From an uncultured delta proteobacterium (GTDB taxonomy: Bacteria; Myxococcota; UBA727; VGSZ01), in contig CAVZJB010000011.1 of NCBI GenBank assembly GCA_963775425.1, positions 832,001-896,000 on the forward strand: DNA of 64,000 bases, written 5' to 3'. The position numbers and the translations under genes were made by a program. The notes beneath the pieces are model-generated. The model did no database searches. It had not been told where the DNA came from and saw nothing but the letters and a program-made list of their open reading frames with translations. Below, piece by piece: positions 10,343-52,202 of this stretch (position 1 is the first letter of the stretch; each line of letters begins with the position of its first letter).

Positions 10343-12909
10343 GCGCCCGCACCCCGCGCATGATCCTGACCAAGAAGCTGCTGCGGGACCTCCGCGCACA
10401 GCTCGCGCAGGTCATCGCCATCAGCGCCGTCAGCGGCCTCGGCGCGTTGATGTTCGTGTCGTCGTACGCCGGCTACCTCGACCTCTCGGACAGCTACCAC
10501 GACGTCCGCAAGAAGCTCGACCTCGCCGACCTGCACATCGACGTCACCACCATCGCTCCCGCGGAGGTCGCGGCGCTCCGCGGGCGCCCGGAGATCGCGC
10601 GGGCGGACGCGCGGCTCGAGATCGATCTGCCGGTGCGCATCCCTGATGCGTCGACGAAGGACGCCACGAGCGGCGCGCCGGGCGAAGCGGGCGCGCCCGG
10701 CGCAGCCCACGCGGCGGACGCAGCGGCGGTGACGGTGCGCTTCTTGTCGCTCCCCGGCGGAGGGCAGCCGGCGCTCGACCGCCTCTACCTCGAGGGGGGG
10801 CGCCTGCCCACCGGCGACGACGAGATCGTCCTCGAGAAGCACCTCGCGACGTTCCACCACCTCGCACCGGGCGACACGCTGACGGTCCCGGTGCTCGGGG
10901 TCGAGCACACGCTGCGCGTCGTCGGCGTCGCTGTGAGCGCGGAGTACCTGTGGGTCTCGCGCAATCGCGAGGACGTGATGCCGACGCCGGACACGTTCGG
11001 CGTCGCGTGGATCGGGCGCGACGCAGAGCGACGGCTGGCGGCTCGCATCGCCGGCGGCATCCCGTTCGGCGCCGCCGCCGTCCCCGCGCTCGCCCTCGCC
11101 GCGTCGCCGGCCGCGGGCAACAAGCTCCTCGTGGATCCGGCTGGCAGCCGCGCCGCCGCCGTGGCCGCCGTGAAAGAGGTGCTCGGCGGTCGCGTGCTGC
11201 GCACGACGGAGCAGGAGGAGCTCGTGGGCGTGAAGCTCCTGCAGCTCGACGTCGACGGCTTCCGCGGCATGGCGGTGTTCTTCCCGCTGTTCTTCCTGGC
11301 CGTCGGCGCGTTCATCGTCGCTTCGGTGCTGAGCCGGCTCGTCGACGCGCAGACGCCGCTCATCGGCACGCTCCGCGCGCTCGGGGCCTCTCGCGCCCGC
11401 GTGCTGTTTCACTACCTCGCCTTCGCCGCGATCCTCGGCGCGGGCGGCGCCGTGGTCGGCGCGCTCCTCGGCGTCCCCGCGGGCGGCGCCATGGCCAGCT
11501 CGTACGCGGTGGAGCTCGGCATCCCCACGGTCACCACGCACCCGCACCTTGAGCTCGTCGTCATCGCCGTGGCCGTCGCGTTCGCCGTCGCCCTCGTCGC
11601 CGGCGGCATCTCCGCCTGGCGCGCCGCGGGCCTCGCGCCCGCCGTGGCCATGCGCGGCGGCGCGCGTGGCAGCTCGTTGATGCTCGTAAAGCTCGCGCGG
11701 CGCCTGCCGCCGGCGGCGCCGATGGTGGTGCGCCTGGCCCTGCGCGACATCCTGCATCGCCCGCTCCGCAGCCTCGCCACGGCGTTCGGCGTCGCGGCCG
11801 CGCTCACGCTGGTCACCACCACGAGCGCGGTGATCGACTCGACCAAGAAGACCATCGACGTGATGTTCTCGGTGGCGCAGCGCGACGATTTGCGCGTCGA
11901 CCTGCTGGCCCCGGAGAACGCCAAGCGCCTGGCCGCCGACGTCAAACGCATCCCCGGCGTCGATCGCGTGGAGGTCTTCGCGGCCGCGCCCGTGGAGCTC
12001 GAGCACGGCGGGACGCGCTCGGAGACGCTCGCGCAGGGCCTCCCCGACGACGGCGACCTCATCCAGGCCGTCGACGTCAACCGCGGCGTCGCGCACCCGG
12101 CCGCCGGCGGCGTGGTCCTCGCGAGGTCGCTCGCGAAGAAGCTCCACGCGGCCCGCGGCGACGACGTGCGGATGCGCCTCGTCGCGCTCCCGGCGGGCGC
12201 GGGCGGCGTCGACGGCGCGGGCGGCGTCGACGGCGCAGCCGCGGCGGACGACGCGGCGGGGTGGACCTCGTTTCACGTCACAGACGTCATCGACGTCCCC
12301 GTCGGCGAGACGGCCACGGTGCGCCTCGCGGATCTCCAGAGCGCGCTGCACATGAAGGATCTCGCCACGTCTGCGGCGGTGACCACCAAGGGCGGCGAGG
12401 CGGTGCGCAAGGACGTGCGCCGCGCGCTCGAGAAGCTGCCGGCGGCCGCGCGGGTGGAAGACGCGGCGTCGCTGCGCAACAACATCGACATCCTGATGGC
12501 GCTCGCCTGGGTGGTGCTCGGCATCATGCTCGTCTTGAGCGTGGTGCTCGCCGCCGCCATCCTCTTCAACACCGCCACGCTCGGCATCCTCGAGCGGCGC
12601 CGCGAGCTCGCCACCATGCGGGCGCTGGGGCAGAGCATGCGCAGCATCACGGCGGAGCTCACCCTCGAGCACGCGCTGCTCGCGCTGGTCGGCGTCATCG
12701 TCGGCGTGCCCGCGAGCATGCTCTTCGTCGAGCGCGTGATGCTGCTGTTTTCGTCGGACCTGATGACGTTCCCCGTGATCTTCACGCCGACCACGTTCAT
12801 CTCCGGCATCGCGGGCGCCGCGCTGGTGCTGCTCGTGGCCCAGTGGCCCGCGCTGCGCGCCGTGTCCCGCGCGTCGCTCGCGGCGAGCCTGCGGCTGCGT
12901 GAAGGCTAA
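10339..12909 (+). CDS. FtsX-like ABC permease (two FtsX/MacB-PCD repeats)
   Basis: IGTLRALGAS and ERRRELATMRALG motifs; two sets of periplasmic domain plus TM helices. Confidence 0.9.
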   Translation: MSARTPRMILTKKLLRDLRAQLAQVIAISAVSGLGALMFVSSYAGYLDLSDSYHDVRKKLDLADLHIDVTTIAPAEVAALRGRPEIARADARLEIDLPVRIPDASTKDATSGAPGEAGAPGAAHAADAAAVTVRFLSLPGGGQPALDRLYLEGGRLPTGDDEIVLEKHLATFHHLAPGDTLTVPVLGVEHTLRVVGVAVSAEYLWVSRNREDVMPTPDTFGVAWIGRDAERRLAARIAGGIPFGAAAVPALALAASPAAGNKLLVDPAGSRAAAVAAVKEVLGGRVLRTTEQEELVGVKLLQLDVDGFRGMAVFFPLFFLAVGAFIVASVLSRLVDAQTPLIGTLRALGASRARVLFHYLAFAAILGAGGAVVGALLGVPAGGAMASSYAVELGIPTVTTHPHLELVVIAVAVAFAVALVAGGISAWRAAGLAPAVAMRGGARGSSLMLVKLARRLPPAAPMVVRLALRDILHRPLRSLATAFGVAAALTLVTTTSAVIDSTKKTIDVMFSVAQRDDLRVDLLAPENAKRLAADVKRIPGVDRVEVFAAAPVELEHGGTRSETLAQGLPDDGDLIQAVDVNRGVAHPAAGGVVLARSLAKKLHAARGDDVRMRLVALPAGAGGVDGAGGVDGAAAADDAAGWTSFHVTDVIDVPVGETATVRLADLQSALHMKDLATSAAVTTKGGEAVRKDVRRALEKLPAAARVEDAASLRNNIDILMALAWVVLGIMLVLSVVLAAAILFNTATLGILERRRELATMRALGQSMRSITAELTLEHALLALVGVIVGVPASMLFVERVMLLFSSDLMTFPVIFTPTTFISGIAGAALVLLVAQWPALRAVSRASLAASLRLREG

Positions 12910-41079: not shown

Positions 41080-41928
41080 CTACGTGGGCGTGGAGCCGCG
41101 CGCGCGTTGGCGCATGGTCAACAGCGCGCGGCCGACGGCGCCGAGGACGAGCGCGATGCCGAAGGTGACGACGACGGCGGCGCCCGTCGGCAGGTCGAGC
41201 GTGAAGGAGCCCCACAGGCCCGCCGCCGACACCAGCGCGCCGAGGCTCCACGCCATCACCAGGCGCACCCCGAGGCGCTTGGTGAACAGGGCGGAGAACA
41301 CCGCGGGCACGATGAGGAACGAGAACACGAGGAGCACGCCCGCCATCTGCACGCTGCTCGTGATGATGACGCCGAACGTCGAGTAGAAGAGCAGGTCCCA
41401 GAGCATGGGCTTCCAACCGTCGTGCTCCGGCGCGTCGTGGTCGAACGACAGCGCGAGGAAGCGCTTGCGGAACGCGAAGTGCAGCACGGCGAGCGCCCCG
41501 AAGATGAGGGCGGTGACCCCCACCTCGGGCAGCGTGACCGTCAGGAGGCTGCCGATGAGGATCTCCTTGATCTCCTCGTCGCCGTGCGGGAGGAACTTGG
41601 CGACGAGGATGGCCGACGCCGCGGCCACCGCGTAGGTGATGCCGATGAAGGCCTCCTGCGGCACTCGTTTGCGAACGCCGCGGGTGAGCGCGAACAGCGC
41701 GGCGCCACCGAAGGTGAAGCCGAGCGACCAGACGTAGGACATCTTGGTGTGGGGCTCGACGCCGTTGTACGAGGCCACCGCCGTGCCGAGCGCGGCGATC
41801 TGCGCCAGGGCGATGTCGACGAAGATGACCTCGCGCGCGAGCACGTGGAGCCCGAGGTACGCGAGGAAGCCCGTCAACAGGAGACAGGCGAGGAAGCCGG
41901 GGAAGAGGATCTGGAGCTCGAGACTCAT
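41080..41928 (-). CDS. metal (Zn/Mn) ABC transporter permease, ZnuB-like
   Basis: YLGLHVLAREVIFVDIALAQIAALG and GVLLVFSFLIVPA motifs; ATG overlaps the upstream stop. Confidence 0.9.
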   Translation of the reverse strand: MSLELQILFPGFLACLLLTGFLAYLGLHVLAREVIFVDIALAQIAALGTAVASYNGVEPHTKMSYVWSLGFTFGGAALFALTRGVRKRVPQEAFIGITYAVAAASAILVAKFLPHGDEEIKEILIGSLLTVTLPEVGVTALIFGALAVLHFAFRKRFLALSFDHDAPEHDGWKPMLWDLLFYSTFGVIITSSVQMAGVLLVFSFLIVPAVFSALFTKRLGVRLVMAWSLGALVSAAGLWGSFTLDLPTGAAVVVTFGIALVLGAVGRALLTMRQRARGSTPT

Positions 41929-42830
41929 GACGCGACCTTCGCGAGATCGCCTACGATGGCGTCGAACAGATCGAAGTAGGTGTGAATCTTCTCGTTGCCG
42001 CCGACCATGCTCGGCACGTAGACCACCTTCGCGTCGGAGTGGGCGGCGATCTGGTCGGGCGAGCGGCGGTCGTAGAAGTTCTCCATGAGGATGGCCTTCA
42101 CCTTGCGCGCGCGCACGGTCTTGATGACCTCGACGGTGTGTTGCGCGGTGGGCTGCACGCCGGGCTTGGGCTCGACGAAGTCGACGACCTCGAGCTTGTA
42201 GCGCTCGGCGAAGTAGGACCACGACTTGTGGTACGTCACAATCGGCTGGCCCTGCAGCGGCGCCAACGCCTTCGCCCACGCCGCCTCTTTCTCCGTCAGC
42301 TTCTGCTCGAACGCCTTGAGGTTCGCCTCGTAGGTGGCTTTGCCGTCGGGATCGAGCTCGCTGAGGCGGGCGGCGATGCCGCGGGCCATCATGCGGCCGT
42401 TCTCGGGGTCGAGCCAGTAGTGCGGGTTTCCCTTGGGGTGCACGTCGCCTTGTGCGCGGTCCGCGATCGACACGACCTCGAGCGGGCGAATGAACTGCGA
42501 CAGGTCGAGATAGCCGGGGCTGCCGATCTGCACCTTGGGGTTGCGCGCGCCCGTCAACAGCGGCGGCAGCCAGCCGATCTCGAGGTCGAGCCCGACGGCC
42601 TCGACGAGGTCGGCGCGGTTCATCGCGAGCATGAACGACGGCTTGGCGTCGAGGAAGTGCGGGTCCTGATAGCCCTTGCACAGCGCGGTGACGTCGACGC
42701 GGTCACCGCCGATGGCGCGGGTGATGGCGCCCGGGTCCTGCGTGGTGGTGACGACCCGGAGCTTGGCAAATGCCGGCGACGCCCCGAGGACGATCGCCAG
42801 CGCGACGAGTGATTGGACGATGCGATTCAT
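41925..42830 (-). CDS. metal ABC transporter substrate-binding protein, ZnuA-like
   Basis: Signal peptide; QDPHF, GDVHPKGNPHYWLDP, YHKSWSY and EPKPG motifs. Confidence 0.92.
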   Translation of the reverse strand: MNRIVQSLVALAIVLGASPAFAKLRVVTTTQDPGAITRAIGGDRVDVTALCKGYQDPHFLDAKPSFMLAMNRADLVEAVGLDLEIGWLPPLLTGARNPKVQIGSPGYLDLSQFIRPLEVVSIADRAQGDVHPKGNPHYWLDPENGRMMARGIAARLSELDPDGKATYEANLKAFEQKLTEKEAAWAKALAPLQGQPIVTYHKSWSYFAERYKLEVVDFVEPKPGVQPTAQHTVEVIKTVRARKVKAILMENFYDRRSPDQIAAHSDAKVVYVPSMVGGNEKIHTYFDLFDAIVGDLAKVAS

Positions 42831-42852
42831 TGGACGACTCCGTGATTGAGGG

Positions 42853-42869
42853 GCGGGGCTCGGCCCCGC
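42853..42869. other. GC-rich intergenic hairpin
   Basis: gcggggc-tcg-gccccgc between the porin-like gene and znuA; no U-tract, so it may be an mRNA stability element. Confidence 0.35.
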
Positions 42870-42903
42870 GAAGGTGGATGGAGCGGGGCGGCCCGCGTCG
42901 GAA

Positions 42904-44319
42904 TCAGAATGCGTGAGCGCCGTGGGCGCCGATGGAGACCTCGAGGTTGATCATGGCGCCCCACAACAGGTCGCCCTGGCCGCGCGTCCCCGCGTTGGCT
43001 TCGACCTGGATGCGGGAGAAGTGCGTCGGCGAGAACTCGCCGACGACGGATCCGCGCTGCGAATTGGGGCCGAGGCCGCCGTTGGCGGTGGCGACGTCGC
43101 CCTCGAGCCCGTCGAAATAGTCGTAGCGAACGCCCGCGCCCCACTCGGGGTTCGGGTGCCACACGAGCTGTGCGTAGCCGCCGCCGTCGACGACGGCGCC
43201 GGTGACATAGTCGGCGTCGCTCGGGTGCCGGGTGCGCACCATCCCCTCGCCGAGAAATTCCAGGAACCAACGCGACTGCGCCGCCGCGGGCTTGTACCGG
43301 ATGAGGAGATCGGTGCCCCAGATCTCGCCGCGCGCGCCGGCGTCGATGTACGGCGTGGGCCCGAGCATGGCGTCGAGGCCCCACAGGACGCTGACGTCGT
43401 CGGAGACGGGGAAGAACTGCTCGATGACGCCGGTGTAGACGAGGTCGAGCGCGTTCTTCACCGGCACCGGGGTGTCGGCTTCGGGCGAGAAGGTGCGCGA
43501 GCAACACGCGCCGCTCGTCCCCTGGACCTCGGCGATGAGGGTGACGGGCCAGGGCAGCGGCGTCAGCCAGCTCACCTCGCCGCCGAGCCCGCGGAAGTTG
43601 TCCTCGCCCATCACGGCGCCGTAGACGAGCGGCTGCGACACGAACCACCACGCGTGCGGGTGCTGTTCGTTGAGCCGCCCGAACTTCGAGAGGAACTCTC
43701 CGGCGCGCGCCTGCAGGCTCCAGGGGAGCTGCAGCGTGGTGGCGTACGCCTCTTCGACCTCGATGCTGTCCTTGAGGACGATGTTCGAGTCGAAGCGCAG
43801 GAAGGGATCCACGCTCGCCGCGAACGACAGCTCCACCTGCCGGAGGGTGAAGCCGTTCGACGTCGGATCGTGGCCGCCGGTCATGAGCGGCACGTCGTCG
43901 GGGTACTTGCTGCCCGGCTTGGAGGCTCGCGCGACGCCGAAGGCGGCGCCGGCGACGTCGAGGATGACGGAGATGTCGGGGTTCATGCTGGCGGCGCCGG
44001 GGATGGCGGCGCCGAGGTTCACCTGCGACAGGTCCGGCACCGCGGGCGCCGCGGGCGCGTTCTTGGCGGCGGCGGTGTCCTCGGCCTGGAGCTCTTCGAG
44101 GAGCTTGTTGTCCTCCTCTTCATCGGCCTTCTTCTTGTCGTCGTCCCCGGCGCTCTTGTCGGCCCCGGCAGCGTCGTTGGTGGGAGGGGGGCCCGTCTCG
44201 GGGGGCGGCTCGGGGGCGGGCGTGGGCGAGGGCGGCGTGGGCGCCGGATCGTCGGCGAGGGCAGGGATGGACAGGAGGGCGGCGCCCCACAACAGGGCGA
44301 CGCTCGTGATTCGGAGCAT
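42904..44319 (-). CDS. zinc-regulated outer-membrane beta-barrel protein
   Basis: Signal peptide; MNPDISVILD, GGHDP..NGF, EVEEAY, FGRLNEQHPHAW; C-terminal IGAHGAHAF; upstream of znuA/znuB. Confidence 0.8.
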   Translation of the reverse strand: MLRITSVALLWGAALLSIPALADDPAPTPPSPTPAPEPPPETGPPPTNDAAGADKSAGDDDKKKADEEEDNKLLEELQAEDTAAAKNAPAAPAVPDLSQVNLGAAIPGAASMNPDISVILDVAGAAFGVARASKPGSKYPDDVPLMTGGHDPTSNGFTLRQVELSFAASVDPFLRFDSNIVLKDSIEVEEAYATTLQLPWSLQARAGEFLSKFGRLNEQHPHAWWFVSQPLVYGAVMGEDNFRGLGGEVSWLTPLPWPVTLIAEVQGTSGACCSRTFSPEADTPVPVKNALDLVYTGVIEQFFPVSDDVSVLWGLDAMLGPTPYIDAGARGEIWGTDLLIRYKPAAAQSRWFLEFLGEGMVRTRHPSDADYVTGAVVDGGGYAQLVWHPNPEWGAGVRYDYFDGLEGDVATANGGLGPNSQRGSVVGEFSPTHFSRIQVEANAGTRGQGDLLWGAMINLEVSIGAHGAHAF

Positions 44320-44401
44320 GACTTCTCTCTTCTCGACGGAGGGAGCGGGGTCGCCGGCGGCCGCGCGATCGGGCGCGGCGTCGGCGGACGCGAAGATGTT
44401 C

Positions 44402-44803
44402 TCAGGCGTCGAGGAGAGGGGGCCCGTGCTTGGGCGCGACCGCGAGGACCTCGCGCCGCGCGGCGGGGGCGTCGGGGGCTCTGGCGACGACGTCCCCGCC
44501 CGGACCGGCGGCGGGGAGCGCGGCGCCGATCGCCGGCGGGACGGTGACGTGTCGCGCGGCGGGGATGGTGAGCGGGCAGTGCTCGTGGACCTCGCGCCCC
44601 TCGGCGTCCGCGTACAGCGTGTCGGCGGCGCCACGCGCGTGGTCGACGTGCAGCGGGCTCACCTCGATGAGCTCGCCGTGCTCGCAGCGCTCGTGGCGCA
44701 CGGCGGACATGTGCACGAGGGAAACGGAGATGGCGACGCTGAACAGCGCGACGCCGAAGGCGCCCGCCGTGAGACGAGGAGCGCGTGTCGGTACCGTCCG
44801 CAC
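44402..44803 (-). CDS. small His/Cys-rich exported protein (DUF2946-like leader)
   Basis: TM segment, then HMSAVRHERCEHGELI and HEHC, and C-terminal LAVAPKHGPP. Start codon approximate (GTG 44803 or 44809). Confidence 0.65.
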   Translation of the reverse strand: MRTVPTRAPRLTAGAFGVALFSVAISVSLVHMSAVRHERCEHGELIEVSPLHVDHARGAADTLYADAEGREVHEHCPLTIPAARHVTVPPAIGAALPAAGPGGDVVARAPDAPAARREVLAVAPKHGPPLLDA

Positions 44804-45098
44804 GGTCACGACACGCTGTGTGACATCGAGAGTGCGATTGCGCAAGGCCGGCGCGGCGCGGGGCAAACGGACACGCGGCGCGCTCACGTCGGCGCGAGGG
44901 TGACGCGCGCGGGCGGTTCGGGTCACCAGACACGTCGCCGCCGCCATCGCCGTCGCCGCCGTCGTCGTCGTCGGCCTCGTGGCCGCCGTCGACGGGTGGA
45001 CGCGTGGAGGCACGGGTGGCGTGGGGCCGGATCGGCGCGCCGCGTGGGCGGCTCTCGGTGTCGTGGGAGAGCGGTCGCGGTGGGAGGGGCCGCGCGGA

Positions 45099-46437
45099 TC
45101 AGGGGTGGGCATCGCGGAGCCAACGCGCGCGGACGGCCTCGAGCAGGCGCTCGTAGCAGGCGCCGCTCTCGATGCGCTCGCGCGCGTCGCGCGGCAGCCA
45201 GGCGAGGCGATCCGCCCAGCTCTCGAGGGGAGGCAGGATCAGCGCGAGGAAGCCCGGTCTCTGCTCGATGACGCCGATCTTGTCGAGGACGATGTCGGGA
45301 TCCGCGCGCACGGTGACGACGACGTCCGCCGCGCTCCCCGAGCGCTCGAGCGCCACGCGCATCTTCCCCACGGGCGTGGCGGGCGCCGCCTGCGGCGCCG
45401 TGGACGCCACCCGGGGGCGTGAGGCGATCGAGCGGCGACGTGGCGCGCTCGCCTCTGAGGACGGCGAGCTTGGTGTACAGCGTGGTGGTCTCGAGGTGCA
45501 GGTGCCCGAGGAGACGCTGGATGAAGCGAACGTCGGTGCCGGCCTCGAGGCGGCGCGTGGCGAAGGAGTGTCGAAGCGTGTGGCACGTGGCCCGCGCGTC
45601 TCCTTCGGCGAGGCGCACGGCCCGGGCCATCGCGCGCTGGGCCGTCCGTGGCCCGATGTAGCGCCGCGGGTCCTCCGGCGACGGGAAGAGGGGGGCATCG
45701 AGCGACGATGCCGTGCGTTTGCAGTGCTCCAGGAGCGCCGCGAAGCTCTGCGGCAACATGACGAGGCGGTCCTTGCGCCCCTTGCCCTGCTCGACGCGGA
45801 TGGTCCGGCGGACGAAGTCGAGGTCGTGGACGCGCAAGCGCACGACCTCGGACACGCGCATTCCGGTCGCGTACATCAACCCCAGGAGCAGCTTGTCCCG
45901 GAGGGACGGCGCGGCCGCGAGGAGGCGCTGCACGCACTCGGCGGAGAGCACCACGGGCAGCTTGTGCGCTCGCCGCGGCGTGACGAGCCCGAGGGTGATC
46001 TCGCGAAAGCACATCTTGTCGAACACGGTTCGCAGGCAACTGAGGTTGACCGAGACCCACGACGACGAGGCGCCGCCGTCCACGAGGAGCTCGAGCCATT
46101 CGCGTACGTGCTCGCGGCACGCCTCTTTGGGTGGCCTCCCGAGCCAGCGCAAAAACGCCCCGACGACGGTGGCGTACGCCTTGCGGGTCTTCGGTTGATA
46201 GAAGCGAATCTTCAGCTCCCGATCCACGACGCGGACGAAATCCGCGGCGTCGATCTCGGTGCGATCGAGGTCGACGACGGCGTGGGTGGCGGCGGTGACG
46301 TCGACGATTGGTGCGCGGGGCGCGTACCTCCCGCGCGGTTGCGTGAAGACCTCGCCGTCGTTGTACCGGCCGAGCCGGCCGCGCGCTCTCTCTCGAAACC
46401 GCGCGGCGCGGCGCGCATGCTCAGCGGCGGCGTGCAT
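45099..46437 (-). CDS. tyrosine recombinase (SAM-like N-domain + catalytic domain) with C-terminal extension; frameshift at about 45411
   Basis: YATGMRVSE, GKGRKDR, HTLRHSFAT and IQRLLGH...TTTLYT give the R-K-H-R-H-Y set. The C-terminal part continues in the frame ending at 45099. Start codon uncertain. Confidence 0.85.
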
Positions 46438-46878
46438 GGAAGGGCTCCGCGAGGACGTTGACGCCGACGGGGCGGGCAAGGCGGCAGAGCCGGATGAGGA
46501 GCACGAGGCGTGCGAGCCCCGGGAACGACGTGGAATGCGGCCGCATAAAGCCTCCGCCGAGCTCGTTGCACCCACCCTGCCAGCCGCCTCGAGCGCCACG
46601 CGCGGCGCACGCGCCGGCAGCCGCGCGCGGCGGTCCGTCCTCACCGGTTCGGCTGCACCGCGCGTCGTTCCGCGCAGGCGCCCGTCGTTCCGATTCGACC
46701 CCGGTTTTCCCGAGCCAGACTTCGTGACATCATCGACGCCCAGAATCACGTTGCACGTGCCCGCTACGCGGGAAAAGGTCGTCGTGACGACGACGAAGTG
46801 GTCAACTCGCTCGCGTCTTTCGATCGACCGTGTTTAACGACACGCATGTGGCACGGCGCGCGCATCGCGTCGACGGCA

Positions 46879-47499
46879 ATGCCGGCAACGGTGCAGGACA
46901 TCTTCCGAAGCGGATTCTCTGCGTTCCAGGGCGATCGCGAGCTCCCTTCACGAATCACCAGGGCTGCGCACGCAATCATCGCGTGCAGGACAGCGATGCT
47001 CGGTGGTCACGTCGAGCGCTGCCCCGATGGTCACTTCGCAAAGATCCACTACAACTCGTGCCGGCACCGGTCCTGCCCCGGCTGCAGGTTCATCAGGGTG
47101 GAGCAGTGGCTCGAGGTTCAGCGAGCGCGGTTTCTGGACTGCGGTCACCACCACGTCGTGTTCACGATCCCCGAGGAGCTCAACGCGCTGTGGAGGCACA
47201 ACCGTCGCGAGATGACCGACGTCCTCTTCGCGGCCGCGAGCGAGACCCTGCTGGAGCTCCTCGGGGACCCGAAGCACCTCGGCGCGAAGCCGGGCATCAT
47301 CGCCGCGCTGCACACGTGGGGACAGGCGCTGCAGTTGCATCCGCACCTCCACTGCGTGGTGACCGCGGGTGGCCTCGACGCGAACGGGGACTGGCGCGAT
47401 GCGAAGAAACGCATCCTTCTCCCCGGGCGTGTCGCGCGTGACCTGTTTCAGGGGCGCTTTCTCGGCAAGCTCTCCCGGCTGCTCCGCGCAACGGGGTGA
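46879..47499 (+). pseudogene. IS91-family (Y2 HUH) transposase, C-terminally truncated
   Basis: Zn-binding CRT..LGGH..C..HYNSCRHRSCPGC, HVVFTIP and LHTWG..L..HPHLH. Stops at about 206 aa, before the catalytic tyrosine motif. Confidence 0.85.
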
Positions 47500-47641: not shown

Positions 47642-48646
47642 TCAGTGCTCGGCGCGCCGCCAGCCGTCGAGGATACGGGTGTAGTTGGCGCGCTCGTAGG
47701 CGTGGGGGTCGGGCACGCTGTCGAGCGCGAAGATCCCGCGCGCCTCCGCCACGGAGGCGTAGCCCTTCTCGTCGAGCCACGCGGCGGCCCCTGCGGCGAT
47801 GCTCGTGAGGCGCTCGACGCCGCCCTCGAGGAGCGCAGACGCGAGCTGAACGGTGTCGGCGCCGCAGGTGATCGCCTTGAGGGCGTCCGTCGCCGTGTGC
47901 ACGCCGCCGCTGCACGACAACGAGAGCGGCGCGCGCTTGGCGAGGAGCGCCAGCGCATGCAAACGCAACGGCAGCTCCGCCGACGTCGACAGCACCAGCC
48001 GGCGATCAACCTCGAGGTTCTCGAGGTCGACGTCGGGCTGGTAGAAACGGTTGAACACCACGACGCCGTCGGCACCCGCGCGCGCGAGGCGCGCGACGAA
48101 CGCGGGTACGGATGCGTAGAAGGGCGAGAGCTTCACCGAGACGGGGATGCGTACGCTCTTGACCACCGCCTCCACCACGGCGGCCTGGCGATCCTCCACC
48201 TGGGCGCCGCTCTCGTCGAAGCCGGTGGCGACGTCGTAGAGGTTGAGCTCGATGGCGGACGCGCCCGCAGCCTCCACGCGCGCGGCCGCGTCCGTCCAAC
48301 CTCCGGGGGTGACGCCGTTGAGCGAGGCGAGCACGGGAACGTCGACGGCCTTCCTCACCCTCTCGAGGTGCTCGAGGTAGCGCTCGACGCCAAGGGAGAA
48401 CACGTCGGTGTCGGGGAGGAACGAGCGCGCCTCGGCGTCCGTGTCGACGTGCGCGTCGAAGTAGCGGTGCGCCGCCACCTGCTCGAGCACGACCTGCTCT
48501 TCAAAGAGCGAGCGCAGGATCACGGCGCCCGCTCCCGCCGCCACGTAGCGCGGCAGAGCATCGACGTCGTCCGCGATGGGAGACGCTCCGACAATGAAGG
48601 GACTCTTCAAAGAGAGGCCCAACCACGACGTGTTGAGATCAACCAT
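47642..48646 (-). CDS. dihydroorotate dehydrogenase-like protein (nifJ-associated)
   Basis: LGLSLKSPFIVGASP, RSLFEEQ, IELNLY, PVSVKLSP, FNRFYQPD and SGGVH motifs. Confidence 0.9.
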   Translation of the reverse strand: MVDLNTSWLGLSLKSPFIVGASPIADDVDALPRYVAAGAGAVILRSLFEEQVVLEQVAAHRYFDAHVDTDAEARSFLPDTDVFSLGVERYLEHLERVRKAVDVPVLASLNGVTPGGWTDAAARVEAAGASAIELNLYDVATGFDESGAQVEDRQAAVVEAVVKSVRIPVSVKLSPFYASVPAFVARLARAGADGVVVFNRFYQPDVDLENLEVDRRLVLSTSAELPLRLHALALLAKRAPLSLSCSGGVHTATDALKAITCGADTVQLASALLEGGVERLTSIAAGAAAWLDEKGYASVAEARGIFALDSVPDPHAYERANYTRILDGWRRAEH

Positions 48647-51600
48647 GACGCGCTCCCATCACCTGGATCTTGGCAAGCTCGGCGTAGACGGCGTGGCGCT
48701 CCTTCACGGCGCGCGCGGCGGCGGCGACGAGGCGCTCGTAGCGCGCCGGGTCCTTGAGCTCCACCATGCGAAACCGCGCCTCCTCCTCCATGTACTTGCG
48801 GATGGGCAGCGTGCCCGGATCCGCGTCGAGCAGCAAAGGGGCGCCGCCGGCGGCCGCGCGACGCGGATCGAAGCGATACAGCGGCCACGCGCCGGACTCG
48901 ATGGCGCGCTTCTGGTGCGCGGGGCTGTCCACGAGGTCGTAGCCGTGGGCGATACAGGGGCTGTGGGCCACGATGAGCGCGGGCCCGGGAAACGACTCGG
49001 CCTCGAGGAAGGCCTGAATGGTCTGCTGGTTCTTCGCCTGCAAACCGACACTGGCGACGTAGATGTGCCCATAGCTCATCGCGAGCAGGCCGAGGTCTTT
49101 CTTGCGCGTCTCTTTGCCGGCGGAGGCGAACTTGGCGACGGCGCCGAGCGGCGTTGCCTTGCTCTGCTGCCCGCCGGTGTTCGAGTAGACCTCGGTGTCG
49201 AGGACAAGCACCTTCACATTCGCGCGCGACGCGAGGACGTGGTCGAGGCCGCCGTAGCCGATGTCGTAGGCCCAGCCGTCGCCGCCGACGAGCCACACGC
49301 AGCGCGGCACGAGGTTGTCGGCGAGGTCGAGGAGCTCCCTTGCGTTCGCTTCGGCGCGCGCGCGGAGCGCTTCCTTGAGCGCCGCCACGTGGCCGCGACG
49401 CGCGGCGATCTGGGCTTCGTCGTCGCTGCTGCACGGCGACAGGAGCGCGTCGGCCAGACCGGGCGGCAGAGTGGACGCGAGCGCGCCGAGGAGCATGCGG
49501 GCGCGTGCCGCCTGGGCGTCTGCGCCGAGGCGGATGCCGAGGCCGAACTCGGCGTTGTCCTCGAAGAGCGAGTTGGCCCACGCGGGGCCGCGCCCGTGCG
49601 CGTCGGTGCCGTAGGGCGTCGTGGGCAGGTTGCCGCCGTAGATGGAGGAGCAGCCGGTGGCGTTGGCGATGATGAGGCGGTCACCGAAGAGCTGCGTGAG
49701 GAGCCGGATGTACGGCGTCTCGCCGCAGCCGGCGCACGCGCCCGAGAATTCGAAGAGGGGCTGCAGGAGCGGCAACGTCCTGACGTCCCGCGGGATGCGG
49801 GTCTTGTCGACGTCGGGGACGCGCAGGAAGAAGTCGAACGCCTCACGCTCGCGCGCCACGTTGTCGGCGAACGGGGCCATGTTGATGGCCTTGCGCTTGG
49901 GCATCGTCCTGTCTTTCGCGGGGCAGACCTCGACGCACAGGCCGCAGCCGGTGCAGTCCTCCGGCGCCACCTGCACGATGAAGTCGAGGCCCGCGAGCTC
50001 CTTGTGAAAGTGCTCGGGCACCGCCTTGAACGACGGCGGCGCGCCCTCCTTGGCCGCGGGCTCGAAGACCTTGGTGCGCACCGCGCTGTGCGGACAAATC
50101 ACCGAGCAGCGGTTGCACTGGATGCAGATGTCGGGCTCCCAGATGGGGATGTTCGGCGCGATGGCGCGCTTCTCGTGCTTGGCCGTGCCCGTCGGCCACG
50201 TGCCGTCGACGGGGAAGGCGCTCACCGGCAACAGGTCGCCCTTCCCTTCGAGCATCAGGGCGGTGACCTTCTTGACGAAGTCGGGAGCGTCGTCTCGCAC
50301 GGTGGCGCGCATGCGCTTGCCGGGAATGACCGCGGCGGGGCGCGCGATCTCCTGCAGGTTGGCGAGCGCGTCGTCGATGGCGGCGAAGTTTCGACGCACG
50401 ATCTCGGGCCCGCGCTTGCCCCAGGTATCCACGACGCTCTGCTTGATGGCGGCGAGCGCGTCGTCGACGGGCATCACCTTTGCGAGGGCGAAGAAACACG
50501 CCTGCATGATGGTGTTGATGCGCCGTCCGAGGCCGTGCTTCTCGGCGATGCTCGCCGCGTCGATGGCGTAGAGGTGGCAGCCGCGCTCGATGAGCGTGCG
50601 CTGCGCCTCCTCGGGGAGGTCCGCGAACACCTTCTCGCGCGGCGCGCTGCTCTGGATGAGCACGACAGCGCCGGGCGCGGCGCGCTCGAGCACGTCTTGC
50701 CGGAAGAACAGGCCGGGATCGTGCACGCCGACGAAGCGCGCCTTCTCGATGAGATACGTGGAGCGGATGGGCTTGTTGCCGAAGCGCAGGTGCGAGACGG
50801 TCATGGAGCCCGACTTCTTGGAGTCGTAGACGAAGTGGCCCTGGCAGTGTTGACCTGTCTTTTCGCCGATGATCTTGATGGTCGCCTTGTTGGACGACAC
50901 CGTGCCGTCGGAGCCGAGGCCGTAGAAGACGGCGCCGACGGTCTCGTCGTCGGTGACGCTGAAGTCCGCGTCCACGGGCAGCGAGAGCCGGGTGACGTCG
51001 TCGTTGATGCCCACCGTGAAGCGTGCGCGCGGCGACGCAGCGGCGAGCTCGTCGAACACTGCGCGCAGCATGCGCGGCGTGAATTCCTTCGATGACAATC
51101 CGTAGCGACCGCCGATGAGGCGCGGCAGCGTCGCAAGGGCGCCCCGCTGCAGGCCGTCCACGAGAGCGCCCGTGACGTCGAGGAGCAGCGGCTCGCTCAC
51201 GCTGCCCGGCTCCTTGGTGCGGTCGAGCACCGCGACGCCGCGCACGCTGTTTGGCAGCACGCCGAGGAGCCGATCGACGCCGAACGGACGGTACAGGCGC
51301 ACCTGCACGCCTCCCACCTTCTCGCCCTTGGCGACGAGCGCCTCCACCGTCTCCCGGGCGCACTCGGCGCCCGACCCCATGAGCACCACGACGCGCTCGG
51401 CCTGCGGGTGGCCGAAGTATTCGAAGGGCGCGTAGCGACGACCGGTGAGCGCGGCGAAGCGCTCCATCCGCTCGGCGACGACCTCCTCGCAGCGGGTGAA
51501 GAAGCCATTTTGCGCCTCGCGCCCCTGGAAGAACGCGTCAGGGTTTTGCGCGGTGCCACGTACGACGGGGTGCTCCGGCGACAGGCCCCGGGCGTGATGC

Positions 51601-52202
51601 GCCTCGACGTCGGCGACGTCGATGAGGGCGCTCAAGTGCTCGTCGTGCAGGACGGTGATGTTCTGGATCTCGTGGCTCGTGCGGAAGCCGTCGAAGAAGT
51701 GCAGGAACGGTACGCGCGACGCGAGGCTGGCGGCGTGCGCGATGGCGGCGAGGTCCTGCGCCTCCTGCGGCGACGACGCGCACAGCATCGCCATTCCCGT
51801 GGGGCGCACCGCCATCACGTCGGAGTGGTCGCCGAAGATCGAGAGCGCGTGCGTGGCCACCGACCGCGCAGCGACGTGCACGACACACGGCGACAGCTCG
51901 CCCGTGATCTTGTAGAGGTTCGGCAGCATCAACAGCAGGCCCTGCGACGCGGTGAACGTGGTCGCGAGCGAGCCCCCCTGCAGCGCGCCGTGCACGGCGC
52001 CGGCGGCGCCGGCCTCGCTCTGCATCTCCACGATCTGGGGCGTCTGTCCGAAGAGGTTGTGCTTGCCGGCTGCGGACCACTCGTCGGCGTGCTCGCCCAT
52101 CGGGGACGCGGGCGTGATGGGGTAGATCGCGATGGTCTCGGAGAGGCGGTAGGCCACCGACGCCACGGCCTCGTTGGCGTCCATTGTCTTGCGTGCGTTC
52201 AT
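48639..52202 (-). CDS. nifJ: pyruvate:ferredoxin (flavodoxin) oxidoreductase
   Basis: YPITP, EMQSEAGAAG, YDSKKSG, two 4Fe-4S motifs (CIQCNRC, CTGCGLC), ACAGCGE and GGDGWAYDIG. Confidence 0.97.
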   Translation of the reverse strand: MNARKTMDANEAVASVAYRLSETIAIYPITPASPMGEHADEWSAAGKHNLFGQTPQIVEMQSEAGAAGAVHGALQGGSLATTFTASQGLLLMLPNLYKITGELSPCVVHVAARSVATHALSIFGDHSDVMAVRPTGMAMLCASSPQEAQDLAAIAHAASLASRVPFLHFFDGFRTSHEIQNITVLHDEHLSALIDVADVEAHHARGLSPEHPVVRGTAQNPDAFFQGREAQNGFFTRCEEVVAERMERFAALTGRRYAPFEYFGHPQAERVVVLMGSGAECARETVEALVAKGEKVGGVQVRLYRPFGVDRLLGVLPNSVRGVAVLDRTKEPGSVSEPLLLDVTGALVDGLQRGALATLPRLIGGRYGLSSKEFTPRMLRAVFDELAAASPRARFTVGINDDVTRLSLPVDADFSVTDDETVGAVFYGLGSDGTVSSNKATIKIIGEKTGQHCQGHFVYDSKKSGSMTVSHLRFGNKPIRSTYLIEKARFVGVHDPGLFFRQDVLERAAPGAVVLIQSSAPREKVFADLPEEAQRTLIERGCHLYAIDAASIAEKHGLGRRINTIMQACFFALAKVMPVDDALAAIKQSVVDTWGKRGPEIVRRNFAAIDDALANLQEIARPAAVIPGKRMRATVRDDAPDFVKKVTALMLEGKGDLLPVSAFPVDGTWPTGTAKHEKRAIAPNIPIWEPDICIQCNRCSVICPHSAVRTKVFEPAAKEGAPPSFKAVPEHFHKELAGLDFIVQVAPEDCTGCGLCVEVCPAKDRTMPKRKAINMAPFADNVAREREAFDFFLRVPDVDKTRIPRDVRTLPLLQPLFEFSGACAGCGETPYIRLLTQLFGDRLIIANATGCSSIYGGNLPTTPYGTDAHGRGPAWANSLFEDNAEFGLGIRLGADAQAARARMLLGALASTLPPGLADALLSPCSSDDEAQIAARRGHVAALKEALRARAEANARELLDLADNLVPRCVWLVGGDGWAYDIGYGGLDHVLASRANVKVLVLDTEVYSNTGGQQSKATPLGAVAKFASAGKETRKKDLGLLAMSYGHIYVASVGLQAKNQQTIQAFLEAESFPGPALIVAHSPCIAHGYDLVDSPAHQKRAIESGAWPLYRFDPRRAAAGGAPLLLDADPGTLPIRKYMEEEARFRMVELKDPARYERLVAAAARAVKERHAVYAELAKIQVMGARHG

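Follow-up and report, generated by a model that had tools for sequence, protein, structure and literature searches.

Integrons are defined, and searched for, by an insertion that is specific to their tyrosine recombinase IntI, and standard analysis, as set out in PMC4889954, excludes recombinases that do not have it. In IntI1, it is the I2 helix of this insertion that makes the trans contact to the second extrahelical base, and the C-terminal helix lies buried within the adjoining subunit (PMC11641012). The recombinases linked to IS91-family elements, which make up the ‘integron-like’ subgroup of Smyshlyaev et al. (bioRxiv 10.1101/542381), also do without the insertion and are 30–43% identical over the body to the enzymes that concern us here, and XerA, XerC and XerD share with those enzymes the same simple two-domain body. 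The subject of this report is a gene at positions 45,099–46,437 (reverse strand) of a 64,000-nucleotide stretch of the genome of an uncultured delta proteobacterium of the phylum Myxococcota (the window), in which a tyrosine recombinase body is followed by a further C-terminal domain of about 90 amino acids, which we call the tail. The window copy is a frameshifted or mis-assembled member of a distinct tyrosine recombinase clade, and we would put at about 0.6 the probability that the tailed enzyme is a non-canonical integron recombinase whose tail probably helps to read or hold folded DNA of the attC type.

The gene spans 1339 nucleotides, that is 446 codons and one base, and this single surplus base splits the body from the tail. 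The body (45,427–46,437; this and the following parts all lie on the reverse strand) consists of an N-terminal stretch of about 66 residues, a SAM-like core-binding domain and a catalytic domain, and ends ...TTLYTKLAVLRGERATSPLD in frame A. That frame belongs to an open reading frame (ORF) at 44,923–46,749 which reads ...HLHLETTTLYTKLAVLRGERATSPLDRLTPP and then runs on through about 160 arginine-rich residues without a stop, the out-of-frame text beginning after ...TTLYTKLAVLRGERATSPLDRLTPP. The +1 frame (ORF 45,099–45,698) reads ...RVASTAPQAAPATPVGKMRVALERSGSAADVVVTVRADPDIVLDKIGVIEQRPGFLALILPPLESWADRLAWLPRDARERIESGACYERLLEAVRARWLRDAHP and leads from a Pro/Ala-rich linker through GKMRVALERSGSAADVVVTVRADPDIVLDKIGVIEQRPGFLALILPPLESWADRLAWLPRDARERIESGACYERLLEAVRARWLRDAHP to the stop codon at 45,099–45,101. 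The linker, at 45,369–45,426, contains the break; in homologues it is variable, similar in composition and in a single frame. The tail, with its predicted SpoVG-like fold of four beta strands and then three helices, occupies 45,099–45,368 together with the stop. The shift is bounded by the SPLD codons (45,427–45,438) and by the first conserved tail residue, a glycine at 45,366–45,368, and, because the linker is not conserved, the exact shifted base cannot be placed between them; a C5G3 run on the reverse strand (45,410–45,417) lies within the linker and agrees with the position near 45,411 at which an earlier note on this DNA had proposed a one-base correction joining recombinase to tail. The frame readings and the length of the gene confirm that correction.

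In all other respects the window copy looks like a healthy member of its family. Frame A matches PF00589 (E 1.9e-37) and PF13495 (E 9.9e-10), and the start codon aligns with the first methionine of two uninterrupted recombinases, P0001 and P0002 (454 and 444 amino acids), which a tail-only search among longer proteins retrieved and whose tails are 63% and 69% identical. The catalytic residues R194, K219, H285, R288, H311 and Y320 (P0001 numbering), invariant in 113 sequences, are kept in the window copy, which deviates at three of the 115 columns that are at least 90% conserved, exactly the family median; the tail is present once in the window’s genome. Since the copy is otherwise intact, the break would be either a very recent mutation or, with equal probability, an assembly error at the C5G3 run.

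How general is the fusion? A search with P0001 gave 120 best homologues of 392–532 amino acids, and 118 of them carry the tail in a single frame with at least five of its seven signature residues, so that the homologues do not end after SPLD, an outcome that the earlier note had named as refuting its reading. Only P0013, a short protein, and P0010, whose tail leaves the frame, depart from this. The latter, a metagenome homologue, begins its tail correctly (..GTMRVAVTRAAG) and then passes into arginine-rich out-of-frame text, which makes it a second frame-broken member, with the break inside the tail. A profile-free tail scan of 1.84 billion representatives yielded 95 matches at E<=0.001, and those of at least 400 amino acids match in their last quarter; many of the 95 are short and may be fragments or, possibly, free-standing tails. 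In a metagenome scan the window tail alone found no locus and a six-tail alignment found two. Within the window’s phylum, the tail occurs in 14 of 401 sampled genomes, including eight of ten in the window’s family besides the window’s own, with one match each; the other 13 matches in the phylum are mostly open frames of about 440 to 850 amino acids, and at four places (G120, G151, G038 and a second one in G071) the tail frames, 138–365 amino acids long, are ended by a contig end or a stop. Tail-bearing loci lie nearly always at contig ends. Among the homologues, P0082, P0087 and P0119 come from contigs of 6–12 Mb. Many of the 120 homologues come from Planctomycetota, where the genomic context is barely sampled and just one of 401 sampled genomes (G722) has clear tails. 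Judged by these homologues, fusion of recombinase and tail is the normal state of the family. One might still read the window as two separate genes, a recombinase with a long arginine-rich end and a protein of about 100 amino acids, or, as a variant, as two frames joined by a programmed +1 frameshift; a GTG/ATG pair does stand ahead of the tail domain, and a 103-amino-acid library protein (P0121) identical to the tail frame was called as a gene of its own. This is very improbable, however, when frame A would gain some 160 arginine-rich residues out of frame, when the 118 homologues are fused without any shift and a programmed one has no precedent in the family, and when the break sits in a homopolymer run within a non-conserved linker.

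The body places these enzymes close to the integron integrases and yet apart from them. Among NCBIfam models, the window gene scores best with that of the integron integrase (TIGR02249; 184.5 bits, cut-off 265), and the Xer models also stay below their cut-offs (XerA 178.6 against 220, XerC 152.3 against 335.15, XerD 148.4 against 329.6); the XerA-like structure PDB 4a8e scores like IntI4. Where IntI4 (VchIntIA, PDB 2a3v) has a 51-residue IntI-specific segment, our query has 11 residues. The tailed genes of five genomes match TIGR02249 at positions 2–178 and 234–315 only, none of the five exceeds the cut-off, and positions from about 179 to 233 are unmatched in every tailed gene examined, whereas canonical IntI of the same phylum score 267–463 bits. 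Canonical IntI occur in 11 of the 401 genomes of the phylum and in none of the 14 that bear the tail. With IntI the tailed family shares the SAM-like core-binding and catalytic domains, with an alignment that reaches the common C-terminal SPL(D), and it keeps the residues R, K, H-x-x-R, H and Y, but it lacks the insertion and adds about 66 N-terminal residues and the tail; from the Xer proteins it differs in the same two extra regions and in its position beside cassette arrays. The N-terminal stretch (46,240–46,437, reverse strand), which reads ..GRYNDGE.F..PRGRYAPR..IVDV....HAVVDL.. ahead of the SAM-like domain, has no Pfam match and is absent from IntI and Xer. In a tree of 58 bodies over 293 columns, from which the tail and insertion columns had been dropped, the tailed enzymes (20), the IntI of the phylum (8) and the IS91-linked enzymes (14) each formed a branch with a Shimodaira–Hasegawa-like approximate likelihood ratio (SH-aLRT) of 100. 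On this alignment, the tailed recombinases are a clade of their own near the integron integrases, without the IntI insertion.

Of particular interest is what stands beside the relatives. Attachment sites resembling attC lie within 3 kb of the tailed gene at seven of 16 places (G084, G069, G026, G137, G071, G030 and the metagenome contig L183). The best view is that of G084, a 20-contig assembly in which the repeat matched 16 places: the end of contig C11 and the start of C20 share 92 nucleotides, and the joined stretch, which stops some 1.2 kb short of the recombinase gene, spreads a minimum of 11 attC-like sites, all on one strand, over about 14 kb; two of the cassettes lie on C20 alone. In each site an outer box (..CCAAC or ..CGAAC) and, after a spacer, an inner box (e.g. 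GAGCATGTGCG) are followed by a variable centre, the complement of the inner box, and TGTT(G/C)GC; the R boxes have the form ..AAC/GTT.., and the L boxes are complementary to each other. The folding z-scores are −6.1 and −5.4 on the two strands for a B-type site and −4.1 and −3.5 for an A-type site, and the spacers are unique, with 52–66% GC against about 71% for the locus. The cassettes encode HicA/HicB, a protein with HD-CE and NACHT domains, proteins with T2SSG and collagen-repeat matches, and unknowns, and the Pfam-matched cassette ORFs, every one of which has a site at the 3′ end, all face away from the enzyme, an orientation shared with IntI arrays. One of these genes (L145 12,312–15,899, reverse strand) is far above the usual size of a cassette gene: it encodes 1195 amino acids with HD-CE, NACHT and ClpX-zinc-finger domains, a defence-like NLR, with HicA/HicB two cassettes away.

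Comparison among close relatives adds a dynamic aspect. Three species of G084’s genus share the recombinase, 210–250 nucleotides upstream of it and the genes downstream, and the DNA that separates this conserved upstream region from the last site is unrelated among them and measures 1150, 1460 and about 120 nucleotides; different first-cassette DNA at a fixed place is the pattern expected of cassette turnover at a fixed site. At the head of the conserved region these three species have a palindrome, GTTCC-N5-GGAAC, as does L183, where two further attC-like sites and an MqsA-like helix-turn-helix gene lie upstream of the tailed recombinase. G137 has a site 1 kb upstream, at the contig end, which is repeated on other contig ends. 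In another host family, that of G071 and G030, the repeat has a core ..GGCCAAT/ATTGGCC.. and lies 3′ of the gene, with over 20 copies spaced at about 1 kb; IntI-type arrays of the ..AAC/GTT.. kind differ from this family in both respects. Among 13 aligned copies of this repeat, three of 11 closing-stem pairs have changed on both sides with pairing kept, and one of 143 cells is broken. As a separate observation in G071, the 64 nucleotides after the recombinase stop (L102 3977–4040), which include a CCCAATG box like the array core, recur in arrays on other contigs (C14:812–1087, C18:3565–3625 and C2:2551–2605), on C14 next to a second, stop-containing tail piece; this suggests that the primary recombination site in this host family may lie 3′ of the gene. 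The search for flanking recombination sites and covariation that had been proposed from the window alone has in this way found attC-type sites beside relatives, with compensatory pairs in the G071/G030 repeat family, and none in the window. 

We need to ask what such an enzyme might do, and the mechanism we favour is that of a resident recombinase of an integron-type cassette platform, which would excise and insert cassettes as IntI does. The tail would then replace or support the missing IntI insertion, by recognising the folded, single-stranded attC hairpin or by holding the synapse in trans. Action on folded single-stranded DNA, suggested at the outset from the likeness to integron integrases, is indirectly supported by the attC-type hairpin sites that relatives adjoin; nothing in the analysis favours the RNA cofactor that was suggested along with it.

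A number of observations weigh against a tailed integron recombinase, and they concern the body, the arrays and the tail alike. The sister relation of the tailed enzymes to IntI has an SH-aLRT of only 48. The attC calls come from a crude scanner of our own and from repeat homology rather than from the IntegronFinder model; a first version of the scanner recovered three of 11 known sites and a second seven of 11 in G084, with none in shuffles. Of the nine other places among the 16 examined, the window has no site, G722 is unclassed, and seven places are site-free or lie on contigs that are too short. In the window there is no attC array, and the scanner’s one hit in 64 kb is what shuffled sequence gives on average (1.0). 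Nor is the design of the platform uniform, since one host family has its array 5′ of the gene and another has it 3′. In the planctomycete G722, four tailed-gene copies (L155–L158), one intact, one with an interruption of about 175 nucleotides and two reduced to the last 70–180 body residues and the tail, are all followed by shared repeats of 130–550 nucleotides, and these repeats fold weakly, have no covariation support and remain unclassed.

These observations have a natural counterpart in the view that the tailed recombinase is not the array’s enzyme at all and is instead a separate mobile or Xer-like gene that lands in or next to arrays, as some insertion elements target attC sites. There is a precedent of sorts, because Cury et al. 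2016 (PMC4889954) examined 21 scattered recombinases near attC sites without the IntI domain and concluded that they were not IntI and were unrelated; the four copies in G722, three of them damaged, resemble a mobile gene, and the array side does differ between host families. We consider this unlikely all the same, since the gene stands at the array boundary at a syntenic place in three species with the adjacent cassette differing, since eight of ten genomes of the window’s family have one match each, since none of the 14 tail-bearing genomes has a canonical IntI, and since the gene is accompanied by neither terminal repeats nor a transposase.

The tail itself matches no Pfam or NCBIfam family at E<=1. 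An AlphaFold2 model built with the family alignment (mean predicted local distance difference test, pLDDT, 86.8; predicted template modelling score, pTM, 0.73) has strands at residues 18–25, 28–35, 41–52 and 55–59 and helices at 63–70, 75–81 and 84–102; in this one model, on which the fold rests, helices pack against a sheet of four strands, and SpoVG comes out as the closest structural match. The SpoVG parallel first drawn by eye is in this respect plausible at the level of the predicted fold. The sequence does not bear it out: PF04026, the SpoVG family, matches none of 18 tails at E<=10; alignment by hhalign of the tail with the SpoVG genes of the phylum gives probabilities of 1.3% and 1.0%, the sole local match, LPRDARERIE with PLNTETREMIE, falling at a topologically equivalent place; a PDB profile search with the 18 tails finds no SpoVG and only designed proteins and RecJ, at E 0.02–0.7; and Foldseek of the tail against the PDB returns nothing at E<=0.001, with SpoVG (2ia9_E) at rank 12 and E 0.89. 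The ESM Atlas gave no usable match. The similarity to SpoVG is under the tool’s noise mark and without support from the sequence, and we regard a SpoVG-like fold as plausible on the model, at about even odds, with kinship to SpoVG and binding of nucleic acid as possible suppositions.

The differences from SpoVG (PF04026; PDB 2ia9, 2i9z and 2i9x) are instructive in their own right. SpoVG is free-standing and the tail is fused to an enzyme. SpoVG has a lysine-rich loop, AMPAKKRKDG, after strand 4, which plays a role in nucleic-acid binding; at this point the tail has LPPLE.W and two short helices, and where the SpoVG consensus reads AMPAKKRKDGTFKD the tail consensus is LPPLExW without the basic run. 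Among 121 genomes of the phylum, a PF04026 search finds true SpoVG genes in 35, but none in the window’s genome or in five genomes of its family. The tail is near neutral, with a median isoelectric point (pI) of 6.9, a median net charge of 0 and 42% of members net positive, although it has five or six conserved Arg/Lys positions, four of which are basic in 98%, 88%, 99% and 95% of members, and it also conserves Glu, Trp and Pro-Pro; hydrophobic residues and Pro/Trp make up most of its best-conserved positions (LPPLE.W, FY..L). Of the proposal that the recombinase carries an extra nucleic-acid-binding module, the extra conserved domain stands, and the binding gains no support from the neutral pI and the missing lysine-rich loop.

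These same properties invite the thought that the tail is a protein–protein module, for oligomerisation, control of the synapse or docking of a host or element partner, rather than a reader of nucleic acid, in which case the recombinase may still serve the arrays. A near-neutral domain without a lysine-rich loop would suit such a role, the conserved LPPLE.W and FY..L would suit a packing or docking surface, and the buried C-terminal helix of IntI1 strengthens the synapse (PMC11641012). On the other hand, the conserved Arg/Lys positions would equally suit DNA contacts, the best structural match of the model is a nucleic-acid-binding fold and the neighbourhood has no conserved partner. We rate a purely protein-binding tail as a serious but distinctly less probable option, and continue to prefer an integron recombinase whose tail would help with the folded attC DNA.

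In the window, the gene has company of a different kind. A truncated IS91-family element at 46,748–47,490 (forward strand), which retains transposase residues 1 to about 233 (PF14319 and the first third of PF04986; NF033538 positions 1–200 of 356), begins 310 nucleotides upstream of the start codon. Is the recombinase then an accessory of this element? The transposase fragment is 361 nucleotides from the start codon, recombinases linked to IS91 are already known as kin of IntI (Smyshlyaev et al., bioRxiv 10.1101/542381), and an IS91 transposase stands immediately downstream in 32 of the 79 relatives that lack a tail. In those 32, however, the transposase follows on the same strand, whereas the one in the window is divergent; none of the 79 tail-less recombinases carries a tail; tblastn finds no IS91 transposase in 22 loci from the phylum’s 13 other genomes with a tail, and the four loci of G722 have none either; and the IS91-linked enzymes form their own branch with support of 100. 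The window’s piece, moreover, shares 99.3% identity over 743 nucleotides with a solo IS91 that lies intact on a different contig of this genome and has no such recombinase beside it. We give hardly any credence to an accessory recombinase of IS91, which is contradicted by the divergent orientation, the solo-copy identity, the tail-less IS91-linked set and the separate branch, and on the sequence comparison take the window’s IS91 to be a secondary insertion outside the recombinase system. The intact transposase (L160; G000:C13:288083–289183; hidden Markov model positions 1–355) is the likely source of the truncated copy. Elsewhere, G120 harbours both a tail-bearing gene, cut by the end of contig C6, and a typical IS91 unit (L187; G120:C79:451–2458) with a tail-less recombinase directly upstream of the transposase.

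Between the gene and the IS91 element, the region at 46,438–46,747 is alignable with relatives and holds a conserved small ORF and a degenerate palindrome, the intact form of which lies 150–210 nucleotides before the start codon in L095, L099, L100 and L183. The ORF (46,421–46,546, reverse strand; about 35–40 amino acids, ..ILTRELAVLL..LRLRRRARPV.VDVLRP) is also present at about 2950–3070 of L095 and at equivalent places in L099 and L100; in three relatives its stop overlaps the recombinase start (ATGA), and in the window an 8-nucleotide difference alters its end. It has no Pfam match and could be a leader peptide, a small regulator or merely conserved regulatory DNA. Beyond the IS91 copy the DNA of the relatives is gone and ordinary chromosomal genes take its place: a dihydroorotate-dehydrogenase-like gene and an ORF of 1187 amino acids, by eye a pyruvate:ferredoxin oxidoreductase, at 47,642–52,202 (reverse strand), and on the other flank, at 41,925–44,634 (reverse strand), a ZnuA-like binding protein and a protein of 576 amino acids that is hydrophobic in its N-terminal stretch and unmatched in Pfam. 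No synteny was found between the window’s neighbours and the relatives’ loci, where the neighbours are likewise ordinary chromosomal genes. With IS91 landed upstream of the start codon, the window copy has lost its array side, and this loss and the frame break together make it probably inactive. Far from the recombinase, a patch of 62–66% GC in the same genome contains a single attC-like sequence that seems to be truncated and shares 78% identity with the repeat of G084 (L159 about 10,560–10,760; G000:C13, about 152.6 kb).

For the window itself the finding is a modest one, a single broken copy without an array, and it is the family that makes it worth following. The earlier note could not place the architecture among described systems, and we too have found no paper describing this family, either as an integron integrase with a C-terminal domain or as a link between SpoVG and recombinases, in a literature search whose scope leaves out subscription journals and supplements; the tail is a new domain family without a Pfam or NCBIfam model, and kinship with SpoVG would be, within the literature searched, the first fusion of that fold to an enzyme. 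We are tempted by, and hold only tentatively, the larger idea of a second, unrecognised integron lineage in the window’s phylum and some Planctomycetota, whose integrase, having never had the IntI insertion or having lost it, would read the attC hairpin with a tethered, C-terminal, SpoVG-like single-strand-binding domain. If this is true, then standard tools overlook complete integrons in such genomes, where many of the attC clusters classed as integrase-less (CALINs) would be of this kind, and the clade could explain part of the integrase-less arrays. A conserved, widespread and insertion-less clade at the head of attC-type arrays would widen the definition of the integron, and it would offer a natural experiment in which a tyrosine recombinase has found another structural solution to the recognition of folded single-stranded DNA.

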